Shown: piece after piece, positions 4,900 to 63,909 of the stretch
How the letters are laid out: the number at the start of each line of letters is the position of its first letter
How positions within the stretch are numbered: the stretch's first letter is position 1
Assembly (NCBI GenBank): GCA_024679065.1
Contig: JAGIQG010000013.1
Location: 33,108,001-33,172,000 of the forward strand
Direction of reading: 5' to 3'
DNA: 64,000 nt
Source of the DNA: Sphyrna mokarran
Taxonomy: Eukaryota
Notes under the pieces: generated by a model
The model's database searches: none
What the model saw: the letters and a program-made list of their open reading frames with translations, nothing else
Told to the model about the DNA's origin: nothing
Program-made: the position numbers and the translations under genes

Positions 4900-6040
4900 C
4901 GAGAGTCATTAAACAATGCAAGCTGTTTAATGTATCTCTTCTTCCTGACTAGGCAATTTCTTCGAAGGACAGTTTCACTTGTTCATCATATGTGGCTACG
5001 GTTGCATTGCTATACTTGGCCATTCATTTCCATTGCATACAATCAAGGCGACGATTTCTCTATGCATTACACAAGTTTCCATGTGGGGTGATATTTGTTG
5101 TGAACACTAAAGGTTTGTATCTTGGCTGGCTCTCCAATGCTCACCACTGGCAACTAATGGCTTAGTTGTCTTGTCAAAATGAAATTTGGCTTTCTGTCAT
5201 TTCACCTTGATTCATTTCCATTCACCTGTTTAAACTTCTAGTTTCAGTAGCTTTTTTTCATTTGAACGGATAGTTCACATTCAGCAAGATATGACTTTTT
5301 GGACTGGACTACTTTCCATCCCAACAGTCAGGATGTCATTCCATTTGAGAATAGCTTTGTCTACATACGTGCTTAATTTTCTCAACTTCTTAATTTTTTT
5401 GGTAATTTTCACTGCCACTCCAGCCTTTCTATTGGGATTGTATGGCTAAGATGTGTCATGTTCAATTTCTCAATTCTTTGTGAATCGGTTGAATTTTTAA
5501 CTTTTTCTTACTTGAGGGTGATTGTCATTCATCACAATGTCTGGGATACTGTAATAGTTGAAGTATGTTTTCAGGCATTCCACTATTTCTCCTGTCATTG
5601 TCAAGGGCGAATTGTGGCACAGTGGTTAGCATTGCTGCCTCACAGTGCCACGGATCCAGGTTCAATTCTGGCCTCAGGTGATTGTCTGAGTGGAGTTTGC
5701 ATGTTCTCTCTATGTCTGCTTGGATTTTCTCCGGGTGTTTTGGTTTCCTCCTACAGTCCAAAGGTGCGCTGATTAGGTTGATTAGTCATGGTGACTTGTC
5801 CCTTAGTGTCAGGAGAATCAGCAGAGTAAATTTGTGGGGTTAGGGCAATGCGGCCTGGGTGGATTGTGGTCGGTGCTGACTCAATGGGTTGAATGGCCTC
5901 CTTCTGCATTGTTGTGATTCTATAAAGTCAGTTTAACTCACTGTAGTCCAAATAGTAGTTGACACTGATAAAATAATCAGTTAAAGAAGCAATCTATTGC
6001 TGGTTTGAATGTTGTGTTTTTGGATAATATTACTAAAAGA
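4900..6040 (-). mobile_element. Gypsy LTR-retrotransposon integrase remnant, split by a SINE
   Basis: Minus-strand peptides DYFISVNYY, EIVECLKTYFNYYSIPDIVMNDNHPQ and NRKAGVAVKITKKL resemble the DDE integrase core. Confidence 0.7.
5605..5922 (+). mobile_element. HE1-like tRNA SINE
   Basis: gtggcacagtggttagc A-box, ggttcaattc B-box, HER1-type aatggcctccttctgc..gattcta tail. Confidence 0.88.
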
Positions 6041-6429
6041 CAGCATGCAGATTATAAGTAGGAAATAGTCAAAGATGGATTTTTGAGAATTCGAGACATA
6101 ACAATCCGGAGGAGGAAGACTGAAGGTGATTTGCTGGCTGTGATAAGAAAAGAACCAGACAACAACCAGCTCACAGAACTAAACAATGAAAGAGAAACAT
6201 TGAAGGATATTTTGAAAGCAGAAGTAGACAGTTTAGTGATAGTGAAGAAATGCGATCAGATGGTGTGGTCATCCAAATCAAAGGCTGCAGACAGGTTAAG
6301 AACGATAGCTTAGCACATTCACAGTTACATAAAAGACAATCTGTGATTTCCATGAAGACTATTTCAGTGCTATGGCAGGATGGAAACCTTGGGATGTTTT
6401 AAATGAGATGCCATTAAAAGCAGAATGTA

Positions 6430-6662
6430 AATCTGAAATAGAAACAAGAAAATGCTGGAAATATTCAGTGGATTAGGTAAAATCTGCGGAGAGAGGAACA
6501 ACGTTAATGTTTCAATCCAAATAGCTTTGAGCAGAACTGGGCAAAGGTAGAAATGAAATAGGTTTTGAACAAGTGCTGGGTGGGAAAAGGGACAAAATGA
6601 AGCTCTAATGAAAAGTCATTGGCCTGAAAAATTAACTCTTTCTCTCTCCACAGATGCTGCCT
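6430..6662. repeat. Penelope-derived short repeat (aaaatgctgga...cagatgctgc); related copies at ~26560-26750, 27540-27640, 44150-44295, 54200-54335
   Basis: Shared aaatgctggaa..tcagcaggtctggcagcatctg motif and its inverted counterpart in each copy. Confidence 0.6.
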
Positions 6663-9529: not shown

Positions 9530-12500
9530 GGAACCAAATTAAAAAGCAGAACCAACAAGGTGGTAATCTCTGGATTACTACTTGAACCACATGCAAATTG
9601 ACGCAGGGTCAATAGAATTACGGAGGTGAACACATGGCTCAAAGATTGGTGTGGGAGGAATGGGTTCGAATTCATGGGGCATTGGCACCAGTATTGGGGC
9701 AGATGGGACATGTTCAGATGGGATGGTCTTCGTTTGAATCGTAAAACCAAGGCTGTAGATAGAGTTATAAACTAATTGGGGGGGGGGGGGAGGTAGGGGG
9801 AATTACAAAACCTAAAGTAAAGGAGAAGGTACGAGTGCAGGTCAATATTGAGGATGTTCCACTAATTAAAGGAGTAGGGGCACGGGAGAGTTAGTAGCGT
9901 TCATACAAATCAGGTCCGGATAAAGGCTGGCATAAAGACACTTTACCTGAATGCACGAGGCATTTGAAACAAAGTGAATGAGTTGATGGCACAAATCAGC
10001 ACAAATGGGTATGATCTAGTGGCCATTATGGAAACATAGTTGCAGGGTGACCGGGACTGGGAATTGAATATCTAGGAGTATTAGACATTTAGGAAGAATA
10101 GACAGAAAGAAAAAGGAGGTGGGGTAGCTCTGTTAATAAAGGATAATATCAGGGCAGTAGTAAGAGAAGATATAGGTTCCAAAGAGCAAAACGTGGAATC
10201 GTTGCGGGTGGAGATAAGAAATAGTAAGGGGAGAAAGTCATTGGTGGGTGTGGTCTATAGGCCTCCAAATAATAACTTTGAAGTGGGGCGGGCTATAAAC
10301 AAGCAAATAATTGATGCATGCAAAAACGGAAACGAGATAATTATGGGGGATTTTAACCTGCATATTGATTGGTTGACTCAAGTCAGATGCAGTGGGTTTG
10401 AGGAAGAATTCTTGGAATGCTGTTGGGATAGTTTGCTTGAACAGTATGTAATGGAACCTACGAGGGAGTGAGTTATCTTAGATTTGGTATTGTGTAATGA
10501 GGCAGGTAGAATTAGGGATCTTCTCGTGAGATATCCTCTTGGGAGGAGTGATCAAATATGGTTGAATTTCTGATGCAAATGGAGGGTGAGAAAGTAGGGT
10601 CCCGAACCAGTGTCCTCTGCTTGAACAGAGGGGAGTATGATAATATAAGGGCGGAATTGGCTAATGTAGATTGGGAGCACAGATTGGTTGGTAGGACAGC
10701 TGAAGAACAGTAGAGGATTTTAAGGAGATCTTTTTCAGTACTCAGCAGGAATATATTCCGGTGATAAAGAAGGACTATAAGAAAAGGGATAACCAGCCGT
10801 GGATATCGAAGGAAATGAAGGAGAGTATTAAATTAAAAACCAATGTGTACAGAGCTGCTAAAAACAGTGGAGAATTAGAAGATTGGGAAAGATTTAAAAA
10901 ACATCAAAGAATGACTAAGAAAGTGATAATGAAAGGAAAGATAGAGTATGAAACTAAACTAACTCTAAATATAAAAAATGACAGTAAAAGTTTTTATAAA
11001 TGTATAAAGAGACTTGCTAGAATGAATGTTGGACCCTTGAATAACATGAGGGGGGTATTTAATGGTGGGAAACAAGGAAATGGCTGAGGCTTTAAATAAG
11101 TTTTTTGTGTCGGTCTTCACAAATAACGGAGGACACAAATAGCTTATCAAATATTAAAGATAGAGGATTGGTAGGAGATGAGGTCCTCAATACAACTACT
11201 GTTATTAGAGAGGTAGTGCTTGATAGACTAATGGGACTGAACATAGACAAGTCCCTGGGACTGGATGGAATGCATCCCAGGTTTCTGAAAGAAATGGCAG
11301 AAGTAATAGCAGGTGCGTTATTAATTATTTATCAAAATTCACTGGACTCTGGGGAAATGCCAATGGATTGGAAAACGGCTACTATTACATCGCTGTTTAA
11401 AAAAGGTAGCAGACAAAAGCCGGTTAGCTTAATGTCTGTAGTTGGAAAAATTGTAGAATCCATCATTAAAGAAGAAATCGCAGGGCATCTAGAAAAGAAC
11501 TGTTTGATCAAACAGACGCAGCACAGATTTGTGAAGGGGGAGTCGTATTTAACAAATTTACTGGATTTTTATGAAGATGTGACTAGTGCGGTAGACAGAG
11601 GGGAACCGATGGATGTGGTGTTTTTAGATTTCCAGAAGGTGTTCGATAAGGTGCCTCACAAAAGGTTGCTGTAGAAGGTTGGGGTACATGAAGTTGGGGT
11701 AAAGTGTTAGCTTTGATTGAGGACTGGCTATCTAACAGGAAGCAGAGAGTTGGAATCAATGGATGTTTTTCTGGTTGGCAGTTGGTGACTAGTGGAGTGC
11801 CGCAGGGATCGGTGCAGGGGCCTCAACTGTTTATCATATACATAGACGATCTGGAGGAGGGGGCTGAATGTAGCATAACGAAATTTGCTGATGACACAAA
11901 GATGAGTGGAAAAGTGAATTGCGGGGAGGACGCGGAAAGTCTGCAGAGAGATCTGGATAGGCTGAGTGAGTGGGCGAGGACCTGGCAGATGGAGTATAAC
12001 TTTAGTAAATGTGAAGTATCCACTTCGATAGAAATAATAATAGGAAGGAATATTATTTAAATAGTGAAAAGTTGTAGCATGCTACTATGCAGAGGGACCT
12101 GGGGGTTCTTGTGCATGAATTGCAAAAACTCAGTCAGCAGGTGATCAAGAAGGTAAATGGAATGTTGGCTTTTATCACGAGGGGGATAGAATATAAAAGC
12201 AGAGAGGTCTTGCTGCAACTGTACAAGGTACTGGTGAGGCCGCAACTGGAGTATTGTGTGCAGCTTTGATCCCCTTATTTGCGAAAGGATATATTGGCCT
12301 TGGAGGGAGTACAGAGAAGGTTCACCAGGCTGATACCGGAGATGAGGGGGTTAGCTTATGAGGAGAGATTAAATAGACTGGGCCTGTACTCGCTGGAATT
12401 TAGAAGGCTAAAGGGGGATCTTATAGAGACTTTCAAGATAATGAAAGGGCTAGATAGAGTAGAGGTAGAGAGATTCTTTCTGCTCAGAAAGGAAACCAGA

Positions 12501-14710: not shown

Positions 14711-15020
14711 GGCAGCATAGTGGTTAGCACTGTTGCCTCACAGCACCAGGGATCTGGGTTCAATTCTGGCTTTGGTTGGCTATCTATGTGTAGTTTGCAC
14801 GTTCTCAATGTGACTGTATGGGTTTCCTTCCACAGTCAAAAATGTGCAGGTTGGTGGATTGTTCACGATAAATTTCCTTTAGTGACTCAAGATGTGTACG
14901 TAGGAGGATTAGTGGCAAATACATGGTATTATGAGGATAGAGCCTGAATGGGATATTCTGACAGTCAGTGCAGACATGATGGGCCAAATGGCCTCCTTCT
15001 GTACTATAGGGATTATATGG
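14711..15020 (+). mobile_element. HE1-like tRNA SINE
   Basis: Same head, body and tail as 5605-5922. Confidence 0.85.
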
Positions 15021-15861
15021 TTTTTGAAAGAGTTCACAACTTTTGGTATGTACATCCTGTGAGCTGTTACGGTCTCCAAGAAACAGCTTTCTGGTGTTCT
15101 TCTTTGAGACATTGGTCCAATAGAGTCATAGAGTAATAGAGCACGGAAATAGGGCCTCTGGCCCAACCCAATCATGCCGACCATGATGCCCTCCCAGGTA
15201 TTCCCAATTGCCTTTGTTTGGTCCTTACTGCTGCTCCACATTTTTCTTAAAACTACTTCTACATGCAGAAGAAAATATCAGTAATAAAATCAATGATGAT
15301 GAGAGTAAGATTTCCAAAGCTGAGAAGGCATTAAGCAGCTTCGGATAACTGACATGCAGGTTGAAATTTCCCTCACAAAACAAAATGTATAAATAAAATG
15401 TCATAATGAGTTGCAATTCAGTTCCCCTATTTTCACTTCAGTACATCTCTCAGTTTTACTGGAGGGTTTACCATGTGCAGTGTTCCTGCAATTTAGAGTA
15501 AACATCATATTATGGCATTAATTGGGTTGTGACATTTAATTTGTGTCCCTGCCTGCTTGTGAAAATAAAATATAGACTGTAGAAATGTAAGCTTAAGAAG
15601 TAAAATAATTAAGAAACATAAGTTGAAGATAAAGAAAGAATGCATAACAAAAAAAATTGTGAGAGTTGAATCAAAAATGAAAAAGAAGAAAATGAGGAAC
15701 AAATAGAGTGGCAATGAGAAACATGCAGGATGAATTGGAAAGTAGAAAACAAGGTCAGAAACAAATACAAGGAGAGACAACTTTTTGATTTTTTTCTGTG
15801 GGCAATGTCATAAAGTATTAACTGCCACTAATAATCTAATAAATCAATTCCAGTCTCTTAC

Positions 15862-21232: not shown

Positions 21233-22878
21233 AGAACATAGAACATAGAACATTACAGCGCAGAAAAGGCCCTTCGGCCTTCGATGTTGCGCCGACCATT
21301 ATAAAAAGCAATGACCCTCCAAACTAAACCATTCCCTTCTCTTCCATAAACTTATCAACTAACCTCTTAAACGCCACCAAACTTGGCGCATCTACAACTG
21401 CCGCAGGCAGGGCATTCCACTCCCTAACCACCCTCTGGGTAAAGAACCTACCTCTGATATCCGTCCTATAACTATCACCCCTTAATTTAAAGCTGTGTCC
21501 CCTCGTGCTAGCTTTCTCCATCCTAGGAAAAAGGCTATCACTGTCCACCCTATCTAAACCTCTAATCATCTTATATGTTTCAATAAGGTCTCTCTTAGCC
21601 GCCTTCTTTCTAACGAAAACAACCTCAAATCCCTCAGCCTCTCTTCATAAGACCTGCCCTCCATACCAGGCAACATCCTGGTAAACCTCCTCTGTACCCT
21701 CTCCAATGCCTCCACATCTTTCTTATAATGTGGGGACCAGAACTGCACACAATACTCCAAGTGCGGCCGCACTAGAGTTTTGTACAGTTGCAACATGACG
21801 TTGCGGCTCCGAAATTCAATCCCCCACCAATAAAAGCTAAGACTCCATATGCCTTCTTAACAACCTTCTCGACTTGACTGCCTACTTTCAGGGATCTATG
21901 CACATACACACCAAGATCCCTCTGTTCATCAAGACTACTAAGAATCCTACCATTAGCCCTATACTCTACACATTTATTATTCCTGCCATAGTGCATTACC
22001 TCACACTTTTCCACATTAAACTCCATTTGCCACCTCTCGGCCCAGCTCTGCAACTTGTCCAAGTCTCTCTGCAAACTATAACACCCCTCTTCACTATCTA
22101 CCACTCCACGACTTTAGTGTCATCTGCAAATTTACTAATCCATCCTTCAATACCCTCATCCAGATCATTTATAAAAATTACAAACAGCAGGGGCCCCAAA
22201 ACAGACCCCTGAGGTACACCACTTGTAACCGAACTCCACGATGAATATCTCCCATCAACCACCACCCTCTGTCTTCTATCTGCTAGCCAATTCCTAAACC
22301 AATTAGCTAAATCACCCTCAATCCCATACATCTGCATTTTCTGCAGAAGCCTTCCATGGGCCACCTTATCAAACGCCTTACTAAAGTCCAATATACCACA
22401 TCAACCGCCTTACCCCCATCCACCTCTTTGGTCACTTTTTCAAAAAACTCAATAAGGTTAGTAAGGCACGACCTACCCTTCACAAAACCATGCTGACTAT
22501 CCCCAATCAATTCATTTCTCTCTAAATAACTATAAATCCTATCCCTAATAATTCTCTCCAATACTTTGCCCACAATAGAAGTAAGACTCACTGGCCCATA
22601 ATTCCCTGGAAGGTCTCTCTTCCCCTTCTTGAACAATGGGACCACATTCGCTATCCTCCAGTCTTCCGGAACCATACCCGTAACCAACGACGACCTGAAG
22701 ATCAGAGCCAGAGGCTCTGCAATCGCCTCTCTTGCCTCCCAGAGAATCCTAGGGTAAATCCTGTCCGGCCCAGGGGACTTATCCAACTTCAACCCTCAAG
22801 AATATCTAGCACATCCTCCCTATCTACTTCGACACTTTCCAGTTTGCAACCCTGTACCTCAGTGTTCTCCACAAGTAC
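21233..22878 (-). mobile_element. 5'-truncated, relatively young CR1/HER1 LINE (RT domain to 3' tail)
   Basis: Overlapping ORFs KSPGPD..., [30 protein letters not shown] broken mainly by frameshifts; (catagaa)n tail. Confidence 0.95.
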
Positions 22879-23907: not shown

Positions 23908-24040
23908 CATAGAATCGGACAGTGCAGAAGGAGGCTATTTGGCTCATTGAGTCTGCACTGACCACAATCTCACCCAGGCCCTATCCCCATAACTGAGTTA
24001 GTCCCTCTGACACTAAGGGTCAATTTAGCATGAGCCTGCA
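23908..24040 (-). mobile_element. HE1-like SINE 3' fragment
   Basis: Matches the tail part of 42888-43198. Confidence 0.7.
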
Positions 24041-25027: not shown

Positions 25028-26419
25028 CTAACAAAATAAAAAATGTTAATTAACAATGCTTTTCTGAAAGAAGAGACTGTTATACTATCTACCTGCCCAT
25101 TTACAGAGATGAGAACAGTTGCTTTCATTTTTCTCATTTTAATGTATCCAATTTAGGAATGTGGCTAGATGATGGACTTTATTGGCCCTAAGTTGTTTTG
25201 CTTTATGTCTCTGCCTCTGTCAGTGATTTTCAGGTATGAGCAGTTGGGTGGGAGGACAAGGTGTCATGATGCTCCAGGCCATGCTCATGGGGCAGATTTG
25301 ATTCAGCTGCTATTTTTCCTGTTACTTTTCCTCCCATGTTGCACAACAACTCATCCAATCGGCCATTTCCACATATATACATTTACACATCTCAAAGTGA
25401 AAACTTGAAAGTCAACTACATAGAGTGCAGGAAAGCCAAAATAAGAGACACTTTACTCCGCTGTGCTGAGTGCCATGCACACTGAAGTAACACATTATAT
25501 CAATATTTGTACTGCTTATTAAGAGAGCATGGGTCATTGCTAATGTCCTTGGCTCATTGGCAAAAGATTACAAAAGTTAAAAGAAGAAAACAGGCTGCTG
25601 AGATAACTTAATCAACTGCATTTGTTATTTTTACAAATGAGGTGCATCATTTCTTATTTTTCTGTTAGCACTCTGAAAGATTCTTTATATTAAGAGAAAA
25701 TAGTAAACTTCAATTTGTCTCCTTCTTTATTACAAAACATTATAAACGACAATTCATGGATTCTTACATTGTGGATAACTAAAGATTTTTTAATCTGTCA
25801 TTTGTTATTATTTAGTGAAAGGGAGGCATCAGGGACAGAAGAACATGGGGACTGGAGCAATATAACTCTGAATTCAGGACAGGGAGCCAATCTAAATATT
25901 GTACTGTACAGTCTACACAATTGAGGTGTGCATTCACAAACTCTACCTAGATAAAATATCGATTTCTTTTTAAGTGTCATGGTAGTTTCACTTCAACCTC
26001 TTGAGACATTTTCAGCATTTCCCTGCGACTAAGTACTCTTTGGAATAAAGCTGCTCAACTGTAATTTTACATAAGAATTATAGGGTTTCATTATACCTCA
26101 TGAGGTCATGGGTCAAAGCAGTTCTGCTCCTTTGGTTACTGTAAAGTTTTATACCATTTACCTGTATCTGTATCAGGGGAAGCTGAAGCCAAATGATCAA
26201 ATGTGTCTTGCCCTTTCATCTTTTGGCTTGTTGGAAATGGCTTTGATAAACAATCCAGATCAAGCTCCTGTACAAAACAAATTTTTATAATCTAAGCTTT
26301 GTACTTTGTTCAGCTTTGTCACTGGAATTTGCAAATTGGAATGCTATTTTAAGTATATTGAGAATGCATGGAAAATCGAGGAATGCGCCTTCTATTTGAA
26401 GAATTTCCCCATTTTAAAT

Positions 26420-26830
26420 TTTTTCTCCACTCTTAAAGTTACAAAGCCAGAGCTCATAGTGGATTCCTTGATTGTTCCAAAATCAAACTCAAATTCAAAC
26501 TGAATCCAATTCATGGTCCCCACAGGAGAGTCAAACAAGATCCAAACTGACAAAATAAAGGATAAAAGCAAATTACTGGAATCTGAAACCAAAAGAGAAA
26601 ATGCTGGAACATCTCAGCAGGTCTGGCAGCATCTGTAAGGAGAGAAAAAGTCAAAAAAGTAAAAAAAAAAATGACGTTTTGAGAAAGGATCATCTGGACT
26701 CAAAACGACAGTTCTTTTCTCTCCTTATAGATGCTACCAAACATGCTAAGATTATCTTTGGTGACAAGATAAAGAATTGTACCCCATCATGAGCTTGATC
26801 CGATGCTTGATTTTAGCCAAAAGTCCAAAG
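26420..26830 (-). repeat. U2-snRNA-headed interspersed repeat, copy A (interrupted by a Penelope-derived insert at ~26560-26760)
   Basis: 26806-26826 (rc) matches U2 nt 11-31 at 19/21; body homologous to 51841-52020. Confidence 0.7.
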
Positions 26831-27330: not shown

Positions 27331-27773
27331 TTGGAGAGTTGGGAAACGAGTGGTGGGTTGCTGATTCCCTTTTCTAAATGTGGTGTCAGGAGGAATGCTC
27401 CTGCTCTTCCTAGCTGTATGGCACGTTAGTATATTTCAAAAATTTACCTTGTTGGTTGGTTGTGAACTTCCTGTGACATTTATATCAGGGTGCAGGGACT
27501 TTTGTGTAGCATAAAATTCCACTCAATTTTCCAGTCAAAAGACTTTCATCAAAGCTGGATAAAAATTCAATTTCTTTCTCCACAGATGCTGCCAAACCTG
27601 CTGAGGATTTCTAGCATCTATAGCATTTTATTTTCATATTTGAAAATAAAAGCATATGACTTTTAATTCAATTACCAATTGCACACACATTGCTACAATA
27701 TTAAGCCATTAGCTTTGTTTAGCAAGCTGTGCATATAGGGAATGTGGTTCAGAGATCGATTTAAATGACATAC

Positions 27774-28104: not shown

Positions 28105-28207
28105 CTGGCCTGAGTCAATGGCATTGCTCACATCAGAATGAAAGTATGAAGGAACAAGCATGTTCTTCAGAGCTAGTTTGATTTCTTTTGCTTCATCAAG
28201 TTCTTGC
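28105..28207 (-). CDS. SPAG17: SPAG17 exon (103 nt, phase 2-0): RQELDEAKEIKLALKNMLVPSYFHSDVSNAIDSGQ
   Basis: gtactgacag| acceptor, CAG|gtatta donor; resembles the mammalian IKNRIIPPFFKSE segment as recalled. Confidence 0.9.
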
Positions 28208-38164: not shown

Positions 38165-39030
38165 AGTCCCCATGGGTCTTTTTCAGGTTGGCAAGATGCA
38201 AGAAGTGATCTGCACAGGGATCAGTGCTGGGCCTCAACTTACAATTTATATAAGTGATTTGCAGGAAGGAACTGAAGGGATGGTTTGCTAAATTTGCTGA
38301 TGACACAATGATAGGCAGGAAACTTACTTGTGAAGAGGACATAAAGAGTTGCAAAGAGATATAGATAGGTTAAGTGAGTAGAAACAAATCTGGAAAATGG
38401 ACAATTACATACGAAAATGTGAAATTGCCCATTTTGGCAGGAAGAATAAAAAAGCCTATTATTTAAAAGGTGAGAGATTGCAGAGCTCTTAGTTGCAAAG
38501 GAATCTGGGTCTCCTGGTGCTTGAATCACAAGAAGCTAATATGCAAATAAAGCAAGTAATTAGGAAAGCTAACAGAGTGTTTTTGCTTATTGTGGGGGAA
38601 TTGAATATAAAAGTTAAGAAGGTTATGCTTCAGTTGTACAGGGCACTAGTGATTCACATTTGGAATACTGTGTACAAAATTGGTCTTATTATTTAAAGAA
38701 GGATGCAAACGCATTCGAAACAGTTCAGAGAACGTTTACCAGACTAGCATGGGAGAGTTGTCTTATGAGGAAATGTTGAACATGCTAGACTTGTATCTGC
38801 TGCAGTTTAGAAGAGTAAGAAGGGACTTGATTGAAACATAAAAGATCCTGAAGGGTCATAATAAGGTAAATGAAGAGACAATGAAGAGAGAATGTTTCCT
38901 CTTGTGAAACAATCTGGAAATAGGCATCACTTTTTAATATTTGGTGGTCGCCCATTTAAAAGGAGATAGGTGAATTGTTTTCCAATCAGAAGGTGATGAA
39001 TTTTTGGAACTGAGATGGTGGAAGCAGAAA
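38165..39030 (+). mobile_element. Old CR1 LINE 3' half
   Basis: QGSVLGPQ / KFADDT / MLQLYRALV remnants. Confidence 0.85.
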
Positions 39031-40842: not shown

Positions 40843-42110
40843 CTGGAAACATTGGAAACAGAAAGGGAAATCAATTTTTTTGGATCAGACAAGCCTCAAT
40901 CAAGTAAAGATTTCTATATAAGTAACTTTTACAGTTAGCATGACCACAGTTAGTATCAAGTTTAGAGTGAAAAAAATTACTGCAGCTTTTAAAATATTAA
41001 GAAAAAGTCCACATTAGGAGAGTAAAAACATCACAAAGGAACTAAGTAGATTTTGCATTCAGGTCAGGATATCCTTTAGTCTCAAACTTTTCAACTCTGC
41101 AGAAAATTATGAGGTGATTGGAACTGTCCTCCCTGCCAGAAACTATAGAAAAATGGAGCAAATAAAATGGAATGGGGGACTTACCCATTTCAATTTAGCA
41201 GGCTACAATTTTAAATTTCTGGGTTTGGGTCCTTGTCCTAAGAACAGGTTTGATGTGATCCGGGAGCTTTCTTCTGGGACCCAGAAGGAAACCTTACATC
41301 TCTCCTGCCTGAGGGCTTCCTCCCTCACCAACTCTGATGCCCCTCTATGAGCCTTCCAACATAAATGCCTTGGATCTTGGCCTCCAAGTTGCTCAATTTT
41401 AACAGCCAATTTCTTTGAAAGAAAATTCAGCAAGGGGAGTGTTAATGAAGCTTGACTTAAAGTTGGCTGAAAACCCTGCTGCTGTGCCCTAACAGGCCAA
41501 ATGTTGTGAATTTCTTTGCATACCCAGGAGTAAAAATGATTCCTAGTAACTCTTATTCTGGCATTATTTCACAGATGCTGCCAGCCTGAAAATACTTTAC
41601 CCAAAAGGCCAGTGCTTGCGTTTGAGCTAGAACAAGTGTTACCTTTGCAGCAACAGTTTTTTAATGATAATGAGAAAACCTTTGCTTGTTGAGCCCACCA
41701 TTGCCATGGCTGAGATCCGCAGTGGCTGAGATCCATTGATTTTGCAAAAAACTGGAACTGAACTCATACAGCTGTAACTCAACATAAAAACTTGCGTTTC
41801 AAATCCTGTATTGCATTTAACCATTAAGCCATCTGTGAAATCAGTTTTTACATGTTAACTTATATCATTGTCAATATATTGATTGTTCACAATAGTTCCA
41901 TCCATATACAAGTCAGTAACAAATTGAAAGTTATGTAAAGAAAGGGACATACAGGACATGGCGAAAACAAGTATCAATACAAGTCTGAAGTTTTTTTAAA
42001 CACTTAAGTATGAATAATCCTGTAATTCTGGACACTGAACAAGAATGACAAACAAAACCCACCCTTCTCCTGCCTTCAATTAATATATTCCTTTGAAGCA
42101 TTAGAGGTAC

Positions 42111-42244: not shown

Positions 42245-42887
42245 CTGTTTGAAGTAAATATGGAAAAAGCTTAAAAAAAGAATAAAAGTGTATTATTTAA
42301 ATACCTTAATGTAAAAGTCTACATAAAAAAATTAAATTAGTCTGCGAATACTAGAATGTAATTTTTTTGCTTTAAAATTATATTCTCCCTTCATTTTCCA
42401 TTTATAATAAAAGCATGATGATCTTAGCCATTTATTTTTGAATGTAATTGCATCTATGTTTGCCAACAATACAAAGGTTGGTGAGAAAGTTAGTTATGAA
42501 AATGATAAGAATATGTTGCAAAAGAATACAGGCAGGTCGTGAGTGGGTAAGAACATTACTGATGGAATATCAGGTGAGGAATTTGATTTAATTTAATTTG
42601 ATTTATTATTGTTACATTTATTAGCATACCATACATAAAAAAAAGGAGAGGCTGCAGTGTAATGTTACAGTCATAGCTAGGGTATAAAGAAAGATTACAG
42701 AGTTTTAAAAAGTTACAGTAGAGTTTTAAAAGCACAGAACAAGAGTCAAAGATAGAATTAGAGAATATGCTGGGAATCGTTGCGCTCCAGTGCCATCTTG
42801 GATACGGAAGTGTGAAATTATCCACTTTGTTGGAACAATAGAAAAGGAAAATATTTTTAACTAGTGGGAGTAAAGAAATCATACTTC

Positions 42888-43198
42888 ATAGAATCACAGA
42901 ATCCCACAGTGCAGAAAGAGGCCATTCAGCCCATCTAGTCTGCACTGACCACAATCCTATCTGAATCCTATCCCATAACCCTATGCATTTAGCCTAGCTA
43001 GTCCCCCTCAAAGGGGAATTTAGAATGGCTAATCCATCTAACATTTTTGGACTGTGGGAGGAAATCGGAGGGCACCTGGACGAAACTCATACAGACACGG
43101 GAGGGATATGCAAACTCCACACCGACAGTGAGCCAATCGGGAATCAAACCCTGGTCACTGGCACAGTGAAGCATCAGTGTTAACCACTGTGCCACCCT
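42888..43198 (-). mobile_element. HE1-like tRNA SINE (inside old CR1 debris ~42440-43570)
   Basis: Reverse complement of the SINE family; catagaatc tail. Confidence 0.87.
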
Positions 43199-43942
43199 AC
43201 CTAGGCCTGCTAATTATGTATAATTACCCAAGGAAAGATATACTTGCTTTGGTGCAGTGAAGTTCACCAGATTGACTCCTAGAAATGAGGACATTGTCTC
43301 AGCAGAGGCTGATTATTCTGGATCTATATTCCCTGAAATTTAGAAGAATAAGAGATGATCTGATTGATTGGCAACTTTTTTTAAAGAGCTTGATAGGTAG
43401 GTGTTATTAAGATGTTTCTCTTGTCTATGAAGTCTAGAATTAGCAATAGTTACTGAGTAAGGGGTTTGTCATTTGGAACTGAGACAAGAAGATATTTGTC
43501 CCACTCAGTGGGTTGTGAATCTTTGGAATTGTGTACTCCATAAAGCTGCAGGTGCTGAGTCATATGAGTATAGACTGATCTAACATCTCAAAACTGAGCA
43601 TACGTTATGCACTGTGGGCTATCAACCACAACCTGCTACTCCCTGGCATACTGCTCATGTTTCATATTACCACCACTCTGATTCATGAAGAATGTAGGAA
43701 ATCATGCCAGGAACAGCACCAGGCATCCCAAGTATAAAATTATACTGTGGTACGAATAAAATTCATAAATCAATAGAAACCCATAGGGGTATCTCCTCCA
43801 TGCAGGGAAGGAGAAATCAAAGCATAAAAGATGTTGCAGCCAAAATTACTATAGTATTACTGTATATAGTGCTATTTTGTTATTGTAATCTGTTTCACAT
43901 TAATCCTCATAGGCCATCCAGCCTATGGCCCAGCTTCCTGAC

Positions 43943-44073: not shown

Positions 44074-44399
44074 CTGTCAGGTAAAACAAAGCAATGTTGC
44101 ATCATATCTAAATATATTAATGGGCATTTGAAGCGCAGTACCTAAAACTGCTACAGAAGCAAAATATCTTGAATGCCGGAAACCTAAAATAACAACAAAA
44201 AAAAACTGGAAATATTTGGCAGGTCTGGAAGCAACTATATCTCTTTCCATAGATGCTGCTAGACTCTTTGAGTACCTCGCATTTTCTGTTTTTATTATTC
44301 CAGAAGTGTTAGTTGCGTAATAAACACATAAGCACAGTCACACATTCAATTTCAAAATTATTGAAGTGTAAATCCCATTCACACAGCAATGGCAGTATA

Positions 44400-47057: not shown

Positions 47058-48820
47058 TCGTCCATCATTGGAGGCAGGGAAGATCCCAAAGAACTGGAAA
47101 GTAACTAATGTAACAGCGCTGTTTAAGAAGGGAGGGAGACAGCAGATGGCAAATTATTAGCAGGTTAGCCTAACATCGGTCATTGGAAAGATTTTAGAGT
47201 CCATCATTAAAGATATGATTGCAGAGTACTTGGAAGTGTATGATAAAGTAGGACTGAGTCAGCATGGCTTTGTCAAGGGAAGGTCAAGGGAATAGTGGAT
47301 TCTCGGAGGCTATTTCCCAGGGCTGAAATGGTCGCTACGAGAGGACACAGGTTTAAATGGGGCAAGTACAGAGAAGATGTTAGAGGTAAGTTTTTCACTC
47401 AGAGGGTGGTGAGTGAATGGAATCAGCTGCCATCAGTGGTGGTAGAGGCAAACTTGCTGGGGTCTTTTAAGAGGCTCCTGGATGAGTACATGAGATTTAA
47501 TAGGATTGGGAGTTACAGATAGTTCAATGGCCTGGTAGGTACTGATATGATCGGCACAACTTGTGGGCCAAAGGGCCTGTTTGTGCTGTAGTGTTCTATG
47601 TTCTAAATCTGTTAGAGTTCTTTGAGGAGATAACAGGGAAGTTAGATAAAGGAGAACCAAAGGACATGACTTATTTAGATTTCCAAAAGACCTTTGACAA
47701 GGTACCGCATAGGAGACTGTTAAATTAGCTGAGCCCCCATGGTATTAAGAGTAAGATCCTAGCATGGGTAGAGGATTGGCTGACTGGCAGAAGGCAGAGT
47801 GTGGGGATAAAGGTTTTTTTTAGAATAGCAGCTGGTGACTAATGGTGTGCCTCAGGAGTCGGTGCTGGGACCACAACTTTTCATAATATACATTAATGAT
47901 TTGGAAGAAGGCACTGTTGCTAACTTTGCAGATAATACAAAGATATGTAGATGGACAGGTAGTATTGAGGAAGCAGGGGGCTGCAGAAGGACTTGGACAG
48001 GTTAGGAGACTGGGCAAAGAACTGGCAGATGGAATACAATGTGGAAAAGTATGAGGTATTGCACTTTGAAAGGAGGAATGGAGGAACAGACTATTTTCTA
48101 AGTGAGAAAATGCTTAGGAAGTTAGAAGCACAAAGCGACTTGTGAGTCCTTGTTCAAGATGCTCTTAAGGTTAATGTACAAGTTCAGTCAGCAGTTAAAA
48201 AGACAAATGCAACGTTAGCATTCATGTCGATAGGGCTAGAACACAAGAGCACGGACGTACTTCCAAAGCCCTGGTTGGACCTATTTGGAGTATGGTGAGC
48301 AGTTTTGGGCCCCATATCTAAGGAAGAACGTGCTGCCCTTGGAAAGGATCCAGACGAGGTTCACAAGAATGATCCATGGAATGAAAAGCTTGTCGTATAA
48401 AGAACGATTGAGGACTTTAGGTCTGCACTCGTTGATGAGGGGGAATCTTATTGAAACTTACAGGATACTGTGAGGCCCAGATAGAGTGGACAAGGAGACA
48501 GTGTTTCCACAAGTAGAAAAAACTAGAACCAGAGGGCAGAACACAGACTAAAGGAATGATCCTTCAAAACAGAGATGAGGAATTTCTTCAGCCAGAGAAT
48601 GGTAAATCTGTAGAATTCTTTGCTGCAGAAGGCTGTGGAGGCCCAGTCATTGAGTGTCTTTAAGACAGAGGTAGATAGGTTCTTAATTAATAAGAGAATC
48701 AGGGGTTATGGGAGAAAGGCAGGAGAATGGGGTTGAGAAAAATATCAGCCAGGACTGAATGACAGAGCAGACTCAATGGACTGAGCAACCTAATTCTGCT
48801 CCTATGTTTAATGGTCTTAA
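47058..48820 (+). mobile_element. CR1 LINE RT-to-3' fragment, inserted in an opposite-strand LINE tail (46840-47057 and 48821-49230)
   Basis: [36 protein letters not shown] remnants; tail ctaattctgctcctatg. Confidence 0.9.
47287..47604 (+). mobile_element. Short CR1/HER1 3' fragment nested in the larger CR1
   Basis: Splits the host motif GFVKGRS|(CLT)NLLEFFE; has its own (tgttcta)n tail. Confidence 0.85.
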
Positions 48821-51232: not shown

Positions 51233-51840
51233 CTGAAATGCAAACAGCAGATAGAAGTAAAATTGGCAGAGATTACATTATTTAAATATCCCTGACCTAT
51301 GAGGAACTTTGTTCTACTCAATCCAAAGAGTAGCAATTTACATCCATAACCAAATTTAGCTACAGTCAATAAAAGGGTATCAAGACTCCAACTGATTAAC
51401 TGAAAAATAAAAGATTAACTGATGCATTGAATACTTGGAGAACTTTTTAGAGACCATTAGGTATAAAAACCCTCAAAAAGTATATTTTGACAAAAGAAAA
51501 TCAAAATTTGCATCCCCTGAATTGTTTTTTTCGCTGCTATCAGAATCAAGTCTGATACTGTGCTATCCTTAAGCATATGATTGAAATGAAGGCCTAGCAA
51601 GGCTGCATGCACCTTATCAAGTCAGTGGCAGAATCAAGGAAAGTTTGCCCAGTGTCTTTATTTGTTTGTTACTCTTGTATTAGGGATACTAGATGTGGCT
51701 CCAGAGGCAGCTTGCTGATTTGTAGAAGCAAGGTTGTGACCAATTCTGATTTTAATGTGGAACCCAGAAGAGTATTTCAGTACCAAAAGACTTCAAGACT
51801 GCTGATTTGGCTGCCAAGTTCCTAAGAAGGCTAAAAATAT

Positions 51841-52020
51841 CTTTTGGCTACGACCAAATGACAGATCAAGCCCAAAAAGGAGTGCAATGCCTTATTTTGT
51901 CAGCCTGAATCTTGTTTGTGTCTCTTATGGGGACCATGAATTGGAATCAATTGGATTTTGAGTTTGGTTTTTGGAGTAAGAAAGAAATGGATTTGGGTTC
52001 ACTGTGCTCTTTCGAGCACC
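51841..52020 (+). repeat. U2-snRNA-headed interspersed repeat, copy B
   Basis: 51841-51860 matches U2 nt 14-33 at 17/20; followed by a body homologous to copy A (ggggaccatgaattgga core). Confidence 0.7.
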
Positions 52021-52571
52021 AGAATAAGGTAAGTAAAATGTTACAACTTGCCTTTCAGGAAATACTTTTGACTGTCATATGCCTGAGAAAACTGGGTGAA
52101 ACATGCATGATGCATGTTGCAGTCAGTCCTGAAGCATTTCCAAAAGGGGTCTAAAACCATGAATTAGATTTTCAATTTGCATATACTTATGCAAAAAGCC
52201 TTTATCAATATTGCAGGTGGTGTACTTCCAGTGTGGAATGTGAATACACCACACCCACAACATTGGATGCTGTTTTATGCTTATATAAACAGCGCAGTGC
52301 CAATGAAGTTGCATGCCACAGCCTGTTTAGCTAATCTTTTTCCTGTCAGACTTACATTATTGCACACATAGCAAATGACAATCTGCATGCATAAAGGTAA
52401 GATTTTACACTAAATGCAGCTCTAAGAGCAGCCATTGTGGTATCATCCTAACTATCCTGAAATTTCAAGACTGACTACAAAGCATTCATTAGCCTTCTTT
52501 TGAAGAGTTGAGAAATAATTCAAATGTGTCCTAATCACTTACTCTTGAAAGTAAAGACAGAATAAACTTGA

Positions 52572-52835
52572 ATCATAGAATCCTACAATACAGAAGGAGG
52601 CCATTTGGCCCATAGAGTCTGCACTAACCACAATCTCACCCAAGCCTTATCCCCATTAACCCCTGACACTAAGGGGCAATTTAGCACAGCCAATCTACCT
52701 AACTTGCACTTCTCTGGATTGTAGGAAGAAACGGAGAGAATGCAAACTCCACAGGGACAGTGACTCAAACCGAGAATCAAACCCAGGTCTGTGGCACTGT
52801 GAGGCAACAGTACTACCAACTGTCACCGTGCTGCC
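52572..52835 (-). mobile_element. HE1-like tRNA SINE
   Basis: Reverse complement of the SINE family. Confidence 0.85.
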
Positions 52836-53024
52836 TGTGAACTGAATGTATTATTTAAAGCATTACTATCACTGTGTACATTACCATTATCTATCTTTTT
52901 CAGAAACAACAAGTTTTCAGGGGCACTCAAATGGAACTAAATCAAGCTGCATTACTGAGTAGAATTTTTCCCTTGATTAAGTGTTCATATTAATAAAAGA
53001 ACATTAATATAATTGCTGTATTAC

Positions 53025-53284: not shown

Positions 53285-53925
53285 AAGAACAAGAGTAAAG
53301 AAAATGCACAGGAACAGGACCTCTGCATTGACCATGTTGCCTGAGTTAACTAAAACTTCTACTTATCCGGGGATCATATCTTTCTATTCCCATGCTATTC
53401 TTTTATTTGTCCAGATACCCCTTAAGGGCCACTATTGTACTTGCTTCCATTACTTTTCCTGGCAGCAAGTTCCAGGCACCCATCACGCTCTGTAAAAACT
53501 TGCCTCGTACATTTCTTTTAAACCTTGCCCCCTGCACCTTAAACCTATATCCCCTAATAATTGACTCTTCCACTCTAGGAAAAATCTTCTCAATATTCAC
53601 TCTGTCCATGCCCCTCATAATTTTGTAGACTTTTATCAGGTCGTCCCTCAACCTCAATTGTTTCAGTGTGAACAAACCAAGTTTCTTCATTCTCTCCTCA
53701 TAGCTAATGTCCTCCACATCAAGCAACATTCTGGTGAATCTTTTTTGTATGCTCTCCAAAGCCTCCACATTCTTCTGGTAATGTGGCGACCAGAATTGAA
53801 CATTCTATTCTAAGTGCGACCTAACTAAAGTTCTATAAAGCTGCGACATAATTTGTCAATTTTTAAACTTAGTCTCCCGGCTGATGAAGACAGGAATACT
53901 GTATGCGTTCTTCACTACTTTTTCC
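53285..53925 (-). mobile_element. CR1 LINE 3' fragment
   Basis: ORF ALESIQKRFTRML...LGLFTLKQLRLRDDLIKVYKIMRG. Confidence 0.9.
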
Positions 53926-55034
53926 ACCTATTTTGTGGCTTACAGGAGGGGTTCTATCCTTTGCTGTATGGATTTTGAGAGTGGTAGGATTTTTGAGCTC
54001 CAACCCAACCCTGATCCATTTTTCTGTGAATCCCACTGAATTTCAACCCAGGCATTCAGTGGGACTCCCATCTCCAGTATCTTACATAGTTTTGTGAACT
54101 GAATTTATCCTTGATGCTCTCCTCTGAAATCACTGAACCTCTTTCTGCAGTAAATATAAGACCTAGATACAGGTACATTACATTGTGCTGCTGGTGTCCA
54201 TTCTGATGAAAGGGCATTAACCTGGAAATGTTTACTCATGTTTCTCTGCATCGATGTTGTGTACCTAATGGTATTTCCAGCATTGTTTTGTTTTTATTTC
54301 AGGTTTCCATCATCTGCAGTATTTTATGTTTTCATTGCGCTTTTGGGATTGTTTACATGGGGCACGATTGCTTTTTCCCTCCCCTGACTTTGTCCACTAA
54401 AATCTCCAAGCAGATATCACAACTACAGGGGGCAGATATTCTAGTAATTCATTTAAAACATGCATCCCCAATTTAAATATGTCTCGTGAGCTATGTCAGA
54501 AATTGTGCATTACCGGTGATCAAAGTGCCAGATTCCCTCTGCGATTGGTCAGGCAATCCATCCGTAAAATGAAACCTAAGATTTTAAATTGCCTAGGCCT
54601 CATGATAGTAATCTCATAAGTGTTTTGCTGCCTATCCCTCTCCTCACCAATCTGATTCATCACAGTTAAAATCAGCCTTGAAATTTATTCAGCCATAAAC
54701 TGAGAAATTCAGCTTAATTTCAGAAACAAATTGCCTGAAAAAAGTATTATCCAAAATTTGCTGAATAAGTAATGGTCCCTGAATGATGCCACCATTATTC
54801 ATGTGAAAATCAACTAGCAACTTGTGCTGCGATAAAGGTACTTTGTGAATTACAAGTCATTACAAGTTAGTGACTCATTATTGTTATTCTGCCTTTAGAT
54901 TAGTAAAAACAGAATTTCAGCTTTAACCTCTCCATTTCATGAAGTTGCTGTGTTTGTATATTAATTGCTGATTACAAATGAACAGAAAATATAATAATTA
55001 GCATTGTAAGCATCCTTCCCATGATATGATCATT

Positions 55035-58734: not shown

Positions 58735-60520
58735 TCCCATTTACCTTTTGCCATCTAGAAAAAACATTTATCCCAACTCTCCACCTTCTGTCCATCAGCC
58801 AGTTACCTATCCAAGCTAATAAATTTACTCCTAATCCCATGTGGTCTGACCTTGTGAAAAATCTTTTTATGCGGCATCTTATCAAATACCTTCTGGAAGT
58901 CCAGATATACTACATCTACAGGACCTCCATTATCCAATTTACTTGTCAGGTCTTTGAAGAATTCTAGCAAATTAGTCAAACATGATTTGTCTTTTATAAA
59001 ACCATGCTGATCTGATGGATAGTGTTTTGACTTTGTCATAGTCACAGTCATAGAGTCATTGAGGTTTATAGCATGGAAACAGTCCTTCAACCCAACTTGT
59101 CCATGCTGCCCTTTTTTTTAAACCCCTAAGCTAATCCCAATTGCCCGCATTTGGCCCATATTCCTCTATATCCATGTAACTATCTAAATGCTTTTTAAAA
59201 GATAAAATTGTACCCTACCTCTACTACTACCTTTGGCAGCTTGTTCCAGATACTCACCACCCTCTATGTGAAAAAAATTGCTCATCTGGACATTTTTGTA
59301 TCTCTCCCTATCACCTTAAACTGATATCCTGTAGTTTTAGACTCCCCTATCTTTGGGAAAAGATATTGACTATCTAGCTGATCTGTGCCCCTCATTATTT
59401 TGTAGACTTCAGCTTCTTATGCTCCAGAGAAAAAAGTCCCTGTCTATCAAGCCACTCCTTATAACTCAATCCATCAAGTCCTGGTAGCATCCTAGAAAAT
59501 TTTTCTGCACTCTTTCTAGTTTAATAATCATCTGCAAACTTACTAACCATGCTTTCTATATTCTCATCCAAATCATTAATATAAATGATAAATAACAGTG
59601 GACTCAGCACTGATTCCTGAGGCACACCACTGGTCACAGGCCTCCAGTTTGAAAAACAATTCTCTACAACCACTCTCTGGCTTCTGTCAAGAAGCAATTT
59701 TATATCCATTTAGATACTTCACCCTGGATCCTGTGGGATTTAACCTTATGCAATAACCTACCATGGGTACCTTATCAAAGGCCTTGCTAAATTCAGTGAA
59801 GACAACATCAACTGCATTCCCTCATCTACCTTCTTGATTACACCTTCAAAAAAAACTTAAATCAAATTTGTAAGATATGATTTTCACTCACAAAATCATG
59901 CTGACCGTCCCTAATCAGTAATTGCTTTTCTAAATGACTGTCGATCCTGTCTCTCAAAATACCTTTGAACAATTTACCCACCACACATGTGAGGCTCACT
60001 GGCTTTTCCCTGCAGTCTTTTTTAAACAAAGGCACAACATTTGCCACTCTCCAATCTTCAGACACCTCACCCGTGACTATCGATGATTCAAATATCTCAG
60101 CTAGGAGACCTGCAATTTCCTCCCTAGCCTCCCACAATGTCCTGACTTTCCAAATGTCCTGATGTTGTTCCCTTGATAATTGCTTCTAACACTTTCCCAA
60201 CAACAGATGTCAAACTAACTAGTCTGTAATTTCCTACTTTTTGCCTCCCTTCCTTTTTGAATAAATAATTAGCATTTTTCCAATCCATTGGAAGGGAATT
60301 TTGGAACATTTTAACCAATGAATCTACAATCTCTGCCGCCACATCCTTTAATACCTTAGGACGTAGGCCATCGGGGCCATGGAATTTCTCTGCCTCAATC
60401 CCAATAGTTTGCTGACTGCATACCTTTTGCATAGCGATGTTGATTGTTCTAAGTTTTATCCTTTCTATTATCTCTGATTTGCCTGTAAGAATGATACTAA
60501 TGTCTTCCATTGTGAAAACT
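58735..60520 (-). mobile_element. CR1 RT fragment (58735-59034 and 60143-60520) with a second CR1 (~59040-60142) nested inside it
   Basis: RT peptides on both sides join across the insert; tgacttt repeated at 59028-59034 and 60143-60149. Confidence 0.88.
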
Positions 60521-63130: not shown

Positions 63131-63200
63131 TGCACAACATGAATTACGTCAGAATGCCCTCAGATTTTTGCAGTTTCTGTCTCAAATCACATATAGAGTG

Positions 63201-63473
63201 GAATCATAGAATTGCTACAGTGCAGGAAGCCATTTGGCCCATTAAACCTGCACTGACAACAATCTCACTCAGGCCCTATCCCCGTAGCCCTATATATTTA
63301 CCCTACTAGTCCCCTGATACTAAGAGGCAATTTAGTATGGCCAATCAACCTAACTTGCATATCTTTGAGGATAGCGGCGCATCCGGAGGAAACCGGAGCA
63401 TCTGAACACATGGAAAATGTACAAACTCCACACAGGCAGTCACCCAAGGCTGAATTTGAACCCAGGTCCCTGG
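63201..63473 (-). mobile_element. HE1-like tRNA SINE, 5'-truncated
   Basis: Reverse complement of the SINE family. Confidence 0.82.
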
Positions 63474-63909
63474 AATAGTTTATTCAGATGAGGCACTGGA
63501 TAAATGACACTGTCTGTGGAACCACACCCAGCAATAGTCAGCACTTTCAGCAGAGAAGGAGAGAAAATTGAATGTTATAATAAATGTGGCCTGGCAAATG
63601 CATGTATGTCAGTGCATTGTGGTTCTGTGCTGAATACTATTCTGTTGTATAACTGGCTGCCAGGACCAGGGATAAAGTGACTTAAATTTCTTACAGGTTA
63701 TGTCAAGTGGGAACCCCCCTTTCCACCTTCATTCATAGACACTCATCTTGATGGATACCACTAAAACAAAACTTGAATATTGGAATAGAAGCCTGCAGTG
63801 ACCTACAGAAACTCCCACATTGGCCCACACTACTAATCCCACTGCTTTCTGTGTTCTTGTCATGTCATACCTTGAAATAAGTGAGCTGGTTGAGTCTCAG
63901 TTTAATTAC

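Follow-up and report, generated by a model that had tools for sequence, protein, structure and literature searches.

Two copies of a short repeat in the 64,000-nucleotide stretch of DNA analysed here (the window) are, on balance, probably dead insertions of an old SINE-like retroposon built from U2 snRNA sequence only, running from about nt 11 to about nt 105 of U2, with a 5′ head that was probably renewed before the element spread. In a self-comparison of the window, copy A lies on the minus strand at 26826–26463 and copy B on the plus strand at 51841–51988, inverted relative to one another and 25.0 kb apart. They match in two blocks, one pairing A 26823–26762 with B 51841–51902 (72.6% identity over 62 nt, gapless) and the other pairing A 26563–26463 with B 51887–51988 (80% over 102 nt, E 2e-20). 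In B the two blocks have 16 nt in common, which is explained by a 198-nt insertion and a 16-nt direct repeat in A. None of 800 window decoys attained the score of either block. With A's insertion removed, 102 of 131 ungapped columns are identical (78% over this core), 19 of the 29 differences are transitions, and the K2P distance is 0.27. The shared unit is ~150 nt long; its homology begins and ends at the limits of U2 likeness, with a shared end at 26463/51988. No frame of at least 85 aa lies over either copy. A profile search with A and B brought up no further copy in the 64-kb window, so the word ‘family’ rests here on n = 2.

The preliminary description of this DNA had reported a second copy 25 kb away, which is borne out by these two inverted blocks, and the body motifs that it quoted are present in the window. 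It had also treated 26420–26830 as a single element. The shared element stops at ~26463, not at 26420, and 214 nt of the interval are a palindromic repeat (26761–26564) plus a 16-nt duplication, both absent from B. A weak echo of the body motif occurs at 52156–52197 (plus strand), ~170 nt downstream of B, and is possibly a tandem remnant. Its score was reached by 2 of 800 decoys with A's body as query and by 57 of 800 with B's body, and we do not count it as a further copy.

The 198-nt palindromic repeat in A (26564–26761, minus strand) belongs to another family. Its arms of 38 nt are 87% complementary, and it folds far better than shuffled sequence (z −9.4; 0 of 200 shuffles). It is flanked by the 16-nt duplication, whose first copy at 26777–26762 matches the second, at 26548–26563 on the minus strand (equivalent to U2 nt 36–51), at 14 of 16 positions, and which is single in B at 51887–51902. 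Relatives of the palindrome lie at 27571–27619 (E 4e-5) and, more weakly, at 6595–6662 and 44234–44305, which marks it as a separate, later element; the members of this repeat family in the window are 26564–26761, 27566–27640, 6415–6662, 44157–44305, 41571–41588 and 54195–54317. A match to the MIR1507 model (30.6 bits against a gathering threshold of 73) is produced by the palindrome's hairpin and was rejected as a spurious microRNA. On visual inspection, sequence near 54203 resembles a decayed hammerhead core of the kind carried by Penelope-like pseudo-LTRs, but Rfam finds none there. Penelope-like elements are described, in the sections of PMC8557442 that treat them, as having inverted pseudo-LTR insertions, a hammerhead motif and a linked reverse transcriptase. 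The palindrome resembles such a pseudo-LTR in its inverted repeat and is possibly a remnant of one; neither Rfam nor a motif pattern detected a hammerhead in it, and no reverse transcriptase is linked to it, so we use the Penelope-like label only as a provisional one.

Reference U2 sequences were obtained by a motif scan of a prokaryotic genome-contig collection, which yielded 46 loci (L001–L046). Twenty of these were given to Rfam and 16 were called U2; the 12 full-length or near-full-length calls serve as references and are distinct from the window's own host U2. The three closest to the element, L002, L036 and L033, we take to be ‘vertebrate-type’ U2. Several loci are of interest in themselves. 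The 16 of 20 tested loci that hold spliceosomal U2, some beside U1, U3, U5, U6 or 5S genes, are eukaryotic contigs inside representative prokaryotic genomes. Four loci from a bacterial bin, L003, L025, L029 and L037, are apparently eukaryotic; around position 401 they have variant U2 5′ pieces, in some cases tandemly arranged, and then a common non-U2 sequence. They represent a true repeat of U2 head and foreign body from another host, perhaps a U2-targeting element. Around the same position, the U2 5′ end gives way to non-U2 sequence at about nt 41 in L005 and about nt 33 in L016, and both are candidate retrotransposon junctions; other contigs of their bin hold intact U2 arrays.

The head of copy A (26806–26826, minus strand) corresponds to U2 nt 11–31 and agrees with the U2 of L036 at 19 of 21 positions, a match first noted in the preliminary description and now established against an Rfam-verified U2 gene. 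This 21-mer (26826–26806) occurs once in the window and is the window's best 21-nt match to U2; shuffled-U2 queries never attained 19 matches (0 of 20; maximum 18). Taken alone, its significance is modest (nhmmer E 0.016–0.027), and the head of B (51841–51858, plus strand; U2 nt 14–31, 15 of 18) is weaker (E 1.7–2.1). Across U2 nt 14–31, however, the U2 base is present in both copies at 14 columns and in one copy at the remaining 4. Since none of these 18 columns lacks the U2 base in both copies, the common ancestor of A and B was probably identical to U2 in this region. A start at U2 nt 1, which the earlier account had raised, does not find support, as nt 1–10 are recognizable in neither copy (A 3/10; B 1/13). 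The 3′ end of copy A (26482–26467, minus strand) resembles A's own head at 12 of 16 positions, a likeness that may reflect another piece of U2 head or chance.

Beyond the head, both copies carry the same 24-nt insertion relative to U2, at 26782–26805 (minus strand) in A and 51859–51882 (plus strand) in B. In a MAFFT alignment it sits at U2 nt 30/31, and the sequence after it is collinear with U2. Within the insertion is a second copy of U2 nt 24–31 (A 26801–26794, 7/8; B 51863–51870, 8/8), which leaves at most 16 nt of the element unlike U2. Judged by sequence comparison, the body that follows is diverged U2, from nt 31 to about nt 105. In A it comprises 26762–26782 (minus strand; U2 nt 31–51, with a best ungapped offset of nt 31 on 3/3 references and a column-by-column correspondence) and 26463–26547 (minus strand; U2 nt 52 to ~105, covering the stem II region and an Sm-site-like stretch and also containing a 12-nt tandem). 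In B it is uninterrupted at 51882–51988 (plus strand; U2 nt 31 to ~105) and ranks first in three U2-only scans. The preliminary description had placed a switch at U2 nt 32–36 into a non-U2 body. A discontinuity near nt 31 is real (Fisher p 0.0001–0.0004), but the sequence beyond the 24-nt insertion is not foreign.

Several comparisons point to this identity of the body. When body segments were slid along the whole of U2, two gave best offsets at nt 31 and nt 59/60, collinear on 3/3 of the closest references (with segment borders drawn after the alignment was seen), and a third segment and the insertion gave no consistent best offset. Comparisons that do without these borders are in agreement. 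A profile of A and B compared with U2 nt 32 to the end was equalled by 4, 0 and 0 of 150 shuffles under plain scoring and by 0, 0 and 0 of 150 under transition-aware scoring for the three close references, and by 22 and 46 (plain) or 1 and 5 (transition-aware) of 150 for two distant ones; with the close references, the best local alignments stop at U2 nt 100–107. Anchored to U2 nt 32–105, the score was reached by 2, 1 and 2 of 2000 shuffles for L036, L002 and L033, and by 3, 137, 152 and 696 of 2000 for other references, the more distant U2 genes (137, 152 and 696) giving little or no signal. Transition-aware body scores of 228–233 were matched by none of 6000 window 74-mers, none of 1021 T-rich decoys and no 74-mer of U1, U3, U5, U6, 5S, reversed U2 or the 3′ half of U2 (maxima 203 and 186). 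Blind scans of the window with U2 sequence, leaving out the head, ranked B first every time; A came second of 904 peaks with nt 36–105, sixth of 908 with nt 52–105 and sixth of 896 with nt 32–90. Plain local scoring of each copy is weak, A tying for third to fifth place and B falling outside the top 15. Sm-site-like segments occur in B at 51949 (11/14), 51961 (10/14) and starting at 51985 (11/14), where matches of at least 10/14 have a background rate of 0.0009 per position, and A has one such segment (9/14); reiteration of the Sm site in B is suggestive only. We detected no U2 3′ half; scores against it were low (32–47) for the sequence that follows each copy.

Standard searches pass over this likeness. 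Over the whole window, Rfam gives no U2 match at the gathering threshold or at E up to 10, and none in 51800–52100 or 26380–26580 scanned singly; neither copy therefore scores as a functional U2 gene (above 46 bits). With U2 profiles, nhmmer matched the heads alone and not the bodies. Plasmid blastn with copy B and with the head of A returned chance matches only (E 0.5 or worse), no tRNA was found in the window, and three short window motifs retrieved 0 papers in a full-text literature search.

Head and body differ in their relation to U2 in a way that bears on the ancestry of the copies. U2 nt 31–66 is strongly conserved, with 32 of 36 positions invariant among the 12 reference genes. Over 35 aligned columns of this region, 18 match U2 in both copies and 6 in one, 10 are differences from U2 shared by A and B, and 1 is an unshared difference; a 1-nt deletion near U2 nt 58 is also common to both, and the branch-point recognition sequence (U2 nt 33–38) is altered in both. 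The head, by contrast, has zero differences from U2 common to A and B; the Fisher test cited above compares head with body. The shared 24-nt insertion, 1-nt deletion and 10 substitutions show that A and B go back to a single master already distinct from U2 and, together with unrelated flanks, uphold the earlier claim that they are not two independent U2 pseudogenes. From the established function of U2, a master with this insertion and deletion, changes in the branch-point recognition sequence and no 3′ half would have been unable to act as spliceosomal U2. The master's head is likely younger than its body. Addition of a new U2 5′ piece to a diverged U2-derived master is the simplest account of the contrast, and selection or gene conversion could be alternatives to re-addition as the source of a near-identical head.

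Signs of how the copies were inserted are faint. The shared end is A-rich (A 26476–26464, 8 A in 13; B 51978–51987, 8 A in 10), with no clear poly(A) run at this end in either copy. We found no convincing target-site duplication around A or B. The candidate for A (11/13, 26849–26837 versus 26248–26236) is equalled by 48 of 2000 random 13-mers, 12 of which are perfect 13/13 matches and probably self-overlaps, and it would imply a 3′ part that B does not share; the candidate for B is a 7-nt match only. No promoter-like block common to A, B and three reference U2 upstream regions was seen by eye, a comparison that carries no statistic. Copy B folds no better than shuffled sequence (115 of 200). 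Pfam was run on 61 frames, comprising 60 of 89 long frames and one candidate exon, and 6 of the 61 contain reverse transcriptase or endonuclease remnants, at 10085–12057 (plus), 22101–22795 (minus) and 58806–59117 (minus). No Pfam match among these frames adjoins A or B, and no partner LINE emerged. Broken LINE remnants also recur as related fragments at about 21330–22600, 38170–39010, 47600–48810 and 53390–53930. The candidate coding exon, at 28105–28206 (minus strand), has plausible splice ends and had no match in searches of Pfam, PDB and the ESM Atlas. The window self-comparison further revealed six related SINE-like copies of ~300 nt with 62–80% identity (5614–5962, 14715–15028, 23908–24033, 42860–43225, 52535–52855 and 63193–63479), which may resemble HE1-type shark SINEs; the one at ~52575–52840, together with the palindrome family, gives an impression of shark DNA.

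We propose that an old, 3′-truncated U2 retrocopy gained transcription and was then copied repeatedly. U2 has no internal promoter, so transcription would need an upstream or flanking Pol II promoter. In one or two rounds of copying, a reverse transcriptase could have switched template to true U2 RNA, adding a new piece that ends at nt ~31–33 and leaving U2 nt 24–31 present twice. The reverse transcriptase and endonuclease of a LINE, most plausibly of the L1/Tx1 clade, would have placed the copies in unrelated sites, using the A-rich 3′ end for target-primed reverse transcription. Later, the copies decayed to their present K2P distance, and the palindromic repeat and the 16-nt duplication entered A. 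The proposed renewal of the head corresponds to the repeated gain of 5′ pieces reported by Kojima for SINEU in the portions of PMC4494074 devoted to these elements.

SINEU elements are indeed the closest known counterparts in kind. As set out in those portions of PMC4494074 (Kojima 2015), SINEU-1, -2 and -3 have poly(A) tails, are mobilized by Tx1-Mar, are dispersed in hundreds to thousands of copies and were found in no genome outside crocodilians; partial duplications occur inside their U2-derived parts, SINEU-3 is an all-U2 family, and target-site duplications are hard to see in old SINEU-1 copies too. Like SINEU, the element described here has a U2-derived head, is short (<500 bp) and non-coding, and has a derived structure common to its copies. 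With SINEU-3 it shares a composition of nearly all U2 pieces, a 5′ piece extending to about U2 nt 32 and a shared rearrangement; SINEU-3, however, is described with an internal deletion of ~50 bp, 83 bp of additional U2, a unique 3′ part of ~40 bp, poly(A) and a Mariner-N4_AMi target, whereas the element has a 24-nt insertion, U2 continuing from nt 31 to ~105, no detected U2 3′ half and no target that we could see. The recurrent U1/U2 5′ additions and internal partial duplications of SINEU-1 and SINEU-2 recall the young head and the repeated nt 24–31, but by the same account SINEU-1 has a long non-snRNA 3′ half and SINEU-2 combines U1 with U2, whereas the element contains nothing from U1, and any body sequence in it that is not derived from snRNA is no longer than ~16 nt. 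Because its architecture fits none of these three families, as distinguished by their text descriptions, we do not file it in any of them; the best reading is that it works like SINEU with a different architecture. Tailless, 3′-truncated snRNA retropseudogenes, as characterized in part of PMC2912911, are also similar in having an snRNA 5′ part, a 3′ truncation and no clear tail. They arise one by one from true snRNA and have no shared derived changes, in contrast to A and B with their common insertion, deletion and 10 substitutions.

How else might the two copies have arisen? They could be tailless, 3′-truncated retrocopies of a divergent U2-like host gene with its own promoter, a set of pseudogenes rather than a SINE. 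Retrocopies of this type have precedent (PMC2912911, in the part cited above), all of the shared sequence is U2-like and ends near the Sm site, there is no clear poly(A), and the source gene could supply the shared derived states. Independent truncations rarely coincide, yet the shared homology stops together at 26463/51988; a functional variant gene with a perfect head would hardly have lost its branch-point recognition sequence; and the head/body contrast takes an extra step. We consider this origin unlikely. We judge it improbable that one old chimeric U2 pseudogene underwent a local, inverted DNA duplication over 25 kb, with flanks since lost or overwritten. There are only two copies, they are close together, and some scorings give a marginal likeness downstream (3 to 34 of 400 decoys, from a null that is partly self-overlapping; 24 of 300 shuffles). 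Against this, the flanks fall to background beside a core that is 78% identical. The upstream flanks are unrelated (score reached by 191 of 300 shuffles and 610 of 800 decoys), and with a clean null and HOXD70 the downstream flanks are matched by 128 of 800 decoys, a further flank comparison giving 491 of 800. A downstream similarity seen in a free-gap alignment of 1.2–1.4 kb around the copies was rejected, being at background level with the clean null. The limits of homology are, moreover, the limits of U2 likeness, and the master would still need many changes before any duplication.

Readings that join a U2 head to a larger retrotransposon fare worse. LINE copies normally retain their 3′ end and lose their 5′ end. 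This tells against a longer Tx1/L1-type LINE, resembling Tx1-11_Crp, of which A and B would be the U2-derived 5′ ends, the remainder having been deleted or become too decayed; Tx1 families with a U2 head do exist, according to the sections of PMC4494074 used here, but the copies share no downstream sequence, none of the 61 Pfam-scanned frames lies directly downstream of either, and the idea is very improbable. Keno, of the Tx1 clade, and Utopia have their insertion junctions at U2 nt 38/39, and part of PMC4640811 describes their 3′ flanks as beginning at U2 nt 39. The break in U2 similarity falls within 8 nt of this known target, and the element, like Keno and Utopia, is associated with the U2 5′ region, as would suit a non-autonomous derivative with a U2 head followed by retrotransposon sequence at the nt 37–39 target. 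Those elements are autonomous and protein-coding, however, whereas ours is non-coding, breaks at nt 30/31, resumes U2-like sequence that crosses nt 38/39, and has a non-U2 part of at most 16 nt; such a derivation, which the preliminary description had entertained, fails on these points and is extremely improbable. It had offered a U2-headed SINE or a derivative of a U2-targeting retrotransposon. The SINEU-like repeat survives, but the LINE-derived body does not, since the body is not foreign sequence and the element is thus no fusion of a U2 head to a LINE. Equally hard to credit is a chance likeness of the body to U2 in T-rich sequence, with only the head U2-derived and the body an unrelated repeat. 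The absence of an Rfam match and the weak plain scores of each copy would be expected of such a repeat, but the collinear best offsets, the 1–2 of 2000 shuffles, the 0 of 1021 T-rich decoys and the ranks of 1 and 2 among 904 peaks would not.

More broadly, the preferred reading of A and B as insertions of a U2-only SINE-like retroposon bears on how SINEs originate. SINEs normally derive from RNAs with an internal Pol III promoter. SINEs derived from snRNA do without one and, in the literature searched, are reported from crocodilians only (PMC4494074; PMC5381603, each for the sections that deal with SINEU), where their mode of transcription is an open question. Both PMC5381603 and PMC5786205, in the passages concerned, cite SINEU as Kojima's finding, the former for crocodilians. 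The word ‘snRNA’ has 0 occurrences in the available part of PMC5499810, on elephant-shark SINEs, and none of five terms sought is present in that of bioRxiv 10.1101/2025.02.02.635956; the literature searched, with subscription journals and Repbase Reports outside its scope, contains no U2-derived SINE from a cartilaginous fish. SINEs derived from snRNA are an established concept, both copies look inactive, and Repbase or Dfam may already contain the family. A and B are likely decayed copies of a kind of mobile element described so far only in crocodilians. Such copies evade snRNA annotation and would be labelled unknown repeats. A second, independent family elsewhere would mean that U2 can repeatedly seed SINEs, and would allow the generality of head renewal and of transcription from flanking promoters to be tested. 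More tentatively, and with considerable doubt, the copies might belong to an ancient and abundant U2-only SINE family of cartilaginous fishes, independent in origin from crocodilian SINEU, whose master had its head renewed from live U2 RNA and to which Rfam would be blind because the body has drifted about 30% from U2. If so, two copies per 64 kb would translate into a family that could number tens of thousands, and its existence would establish a second origin of snRNA-derived SINEs, with head renewal as a general rule.
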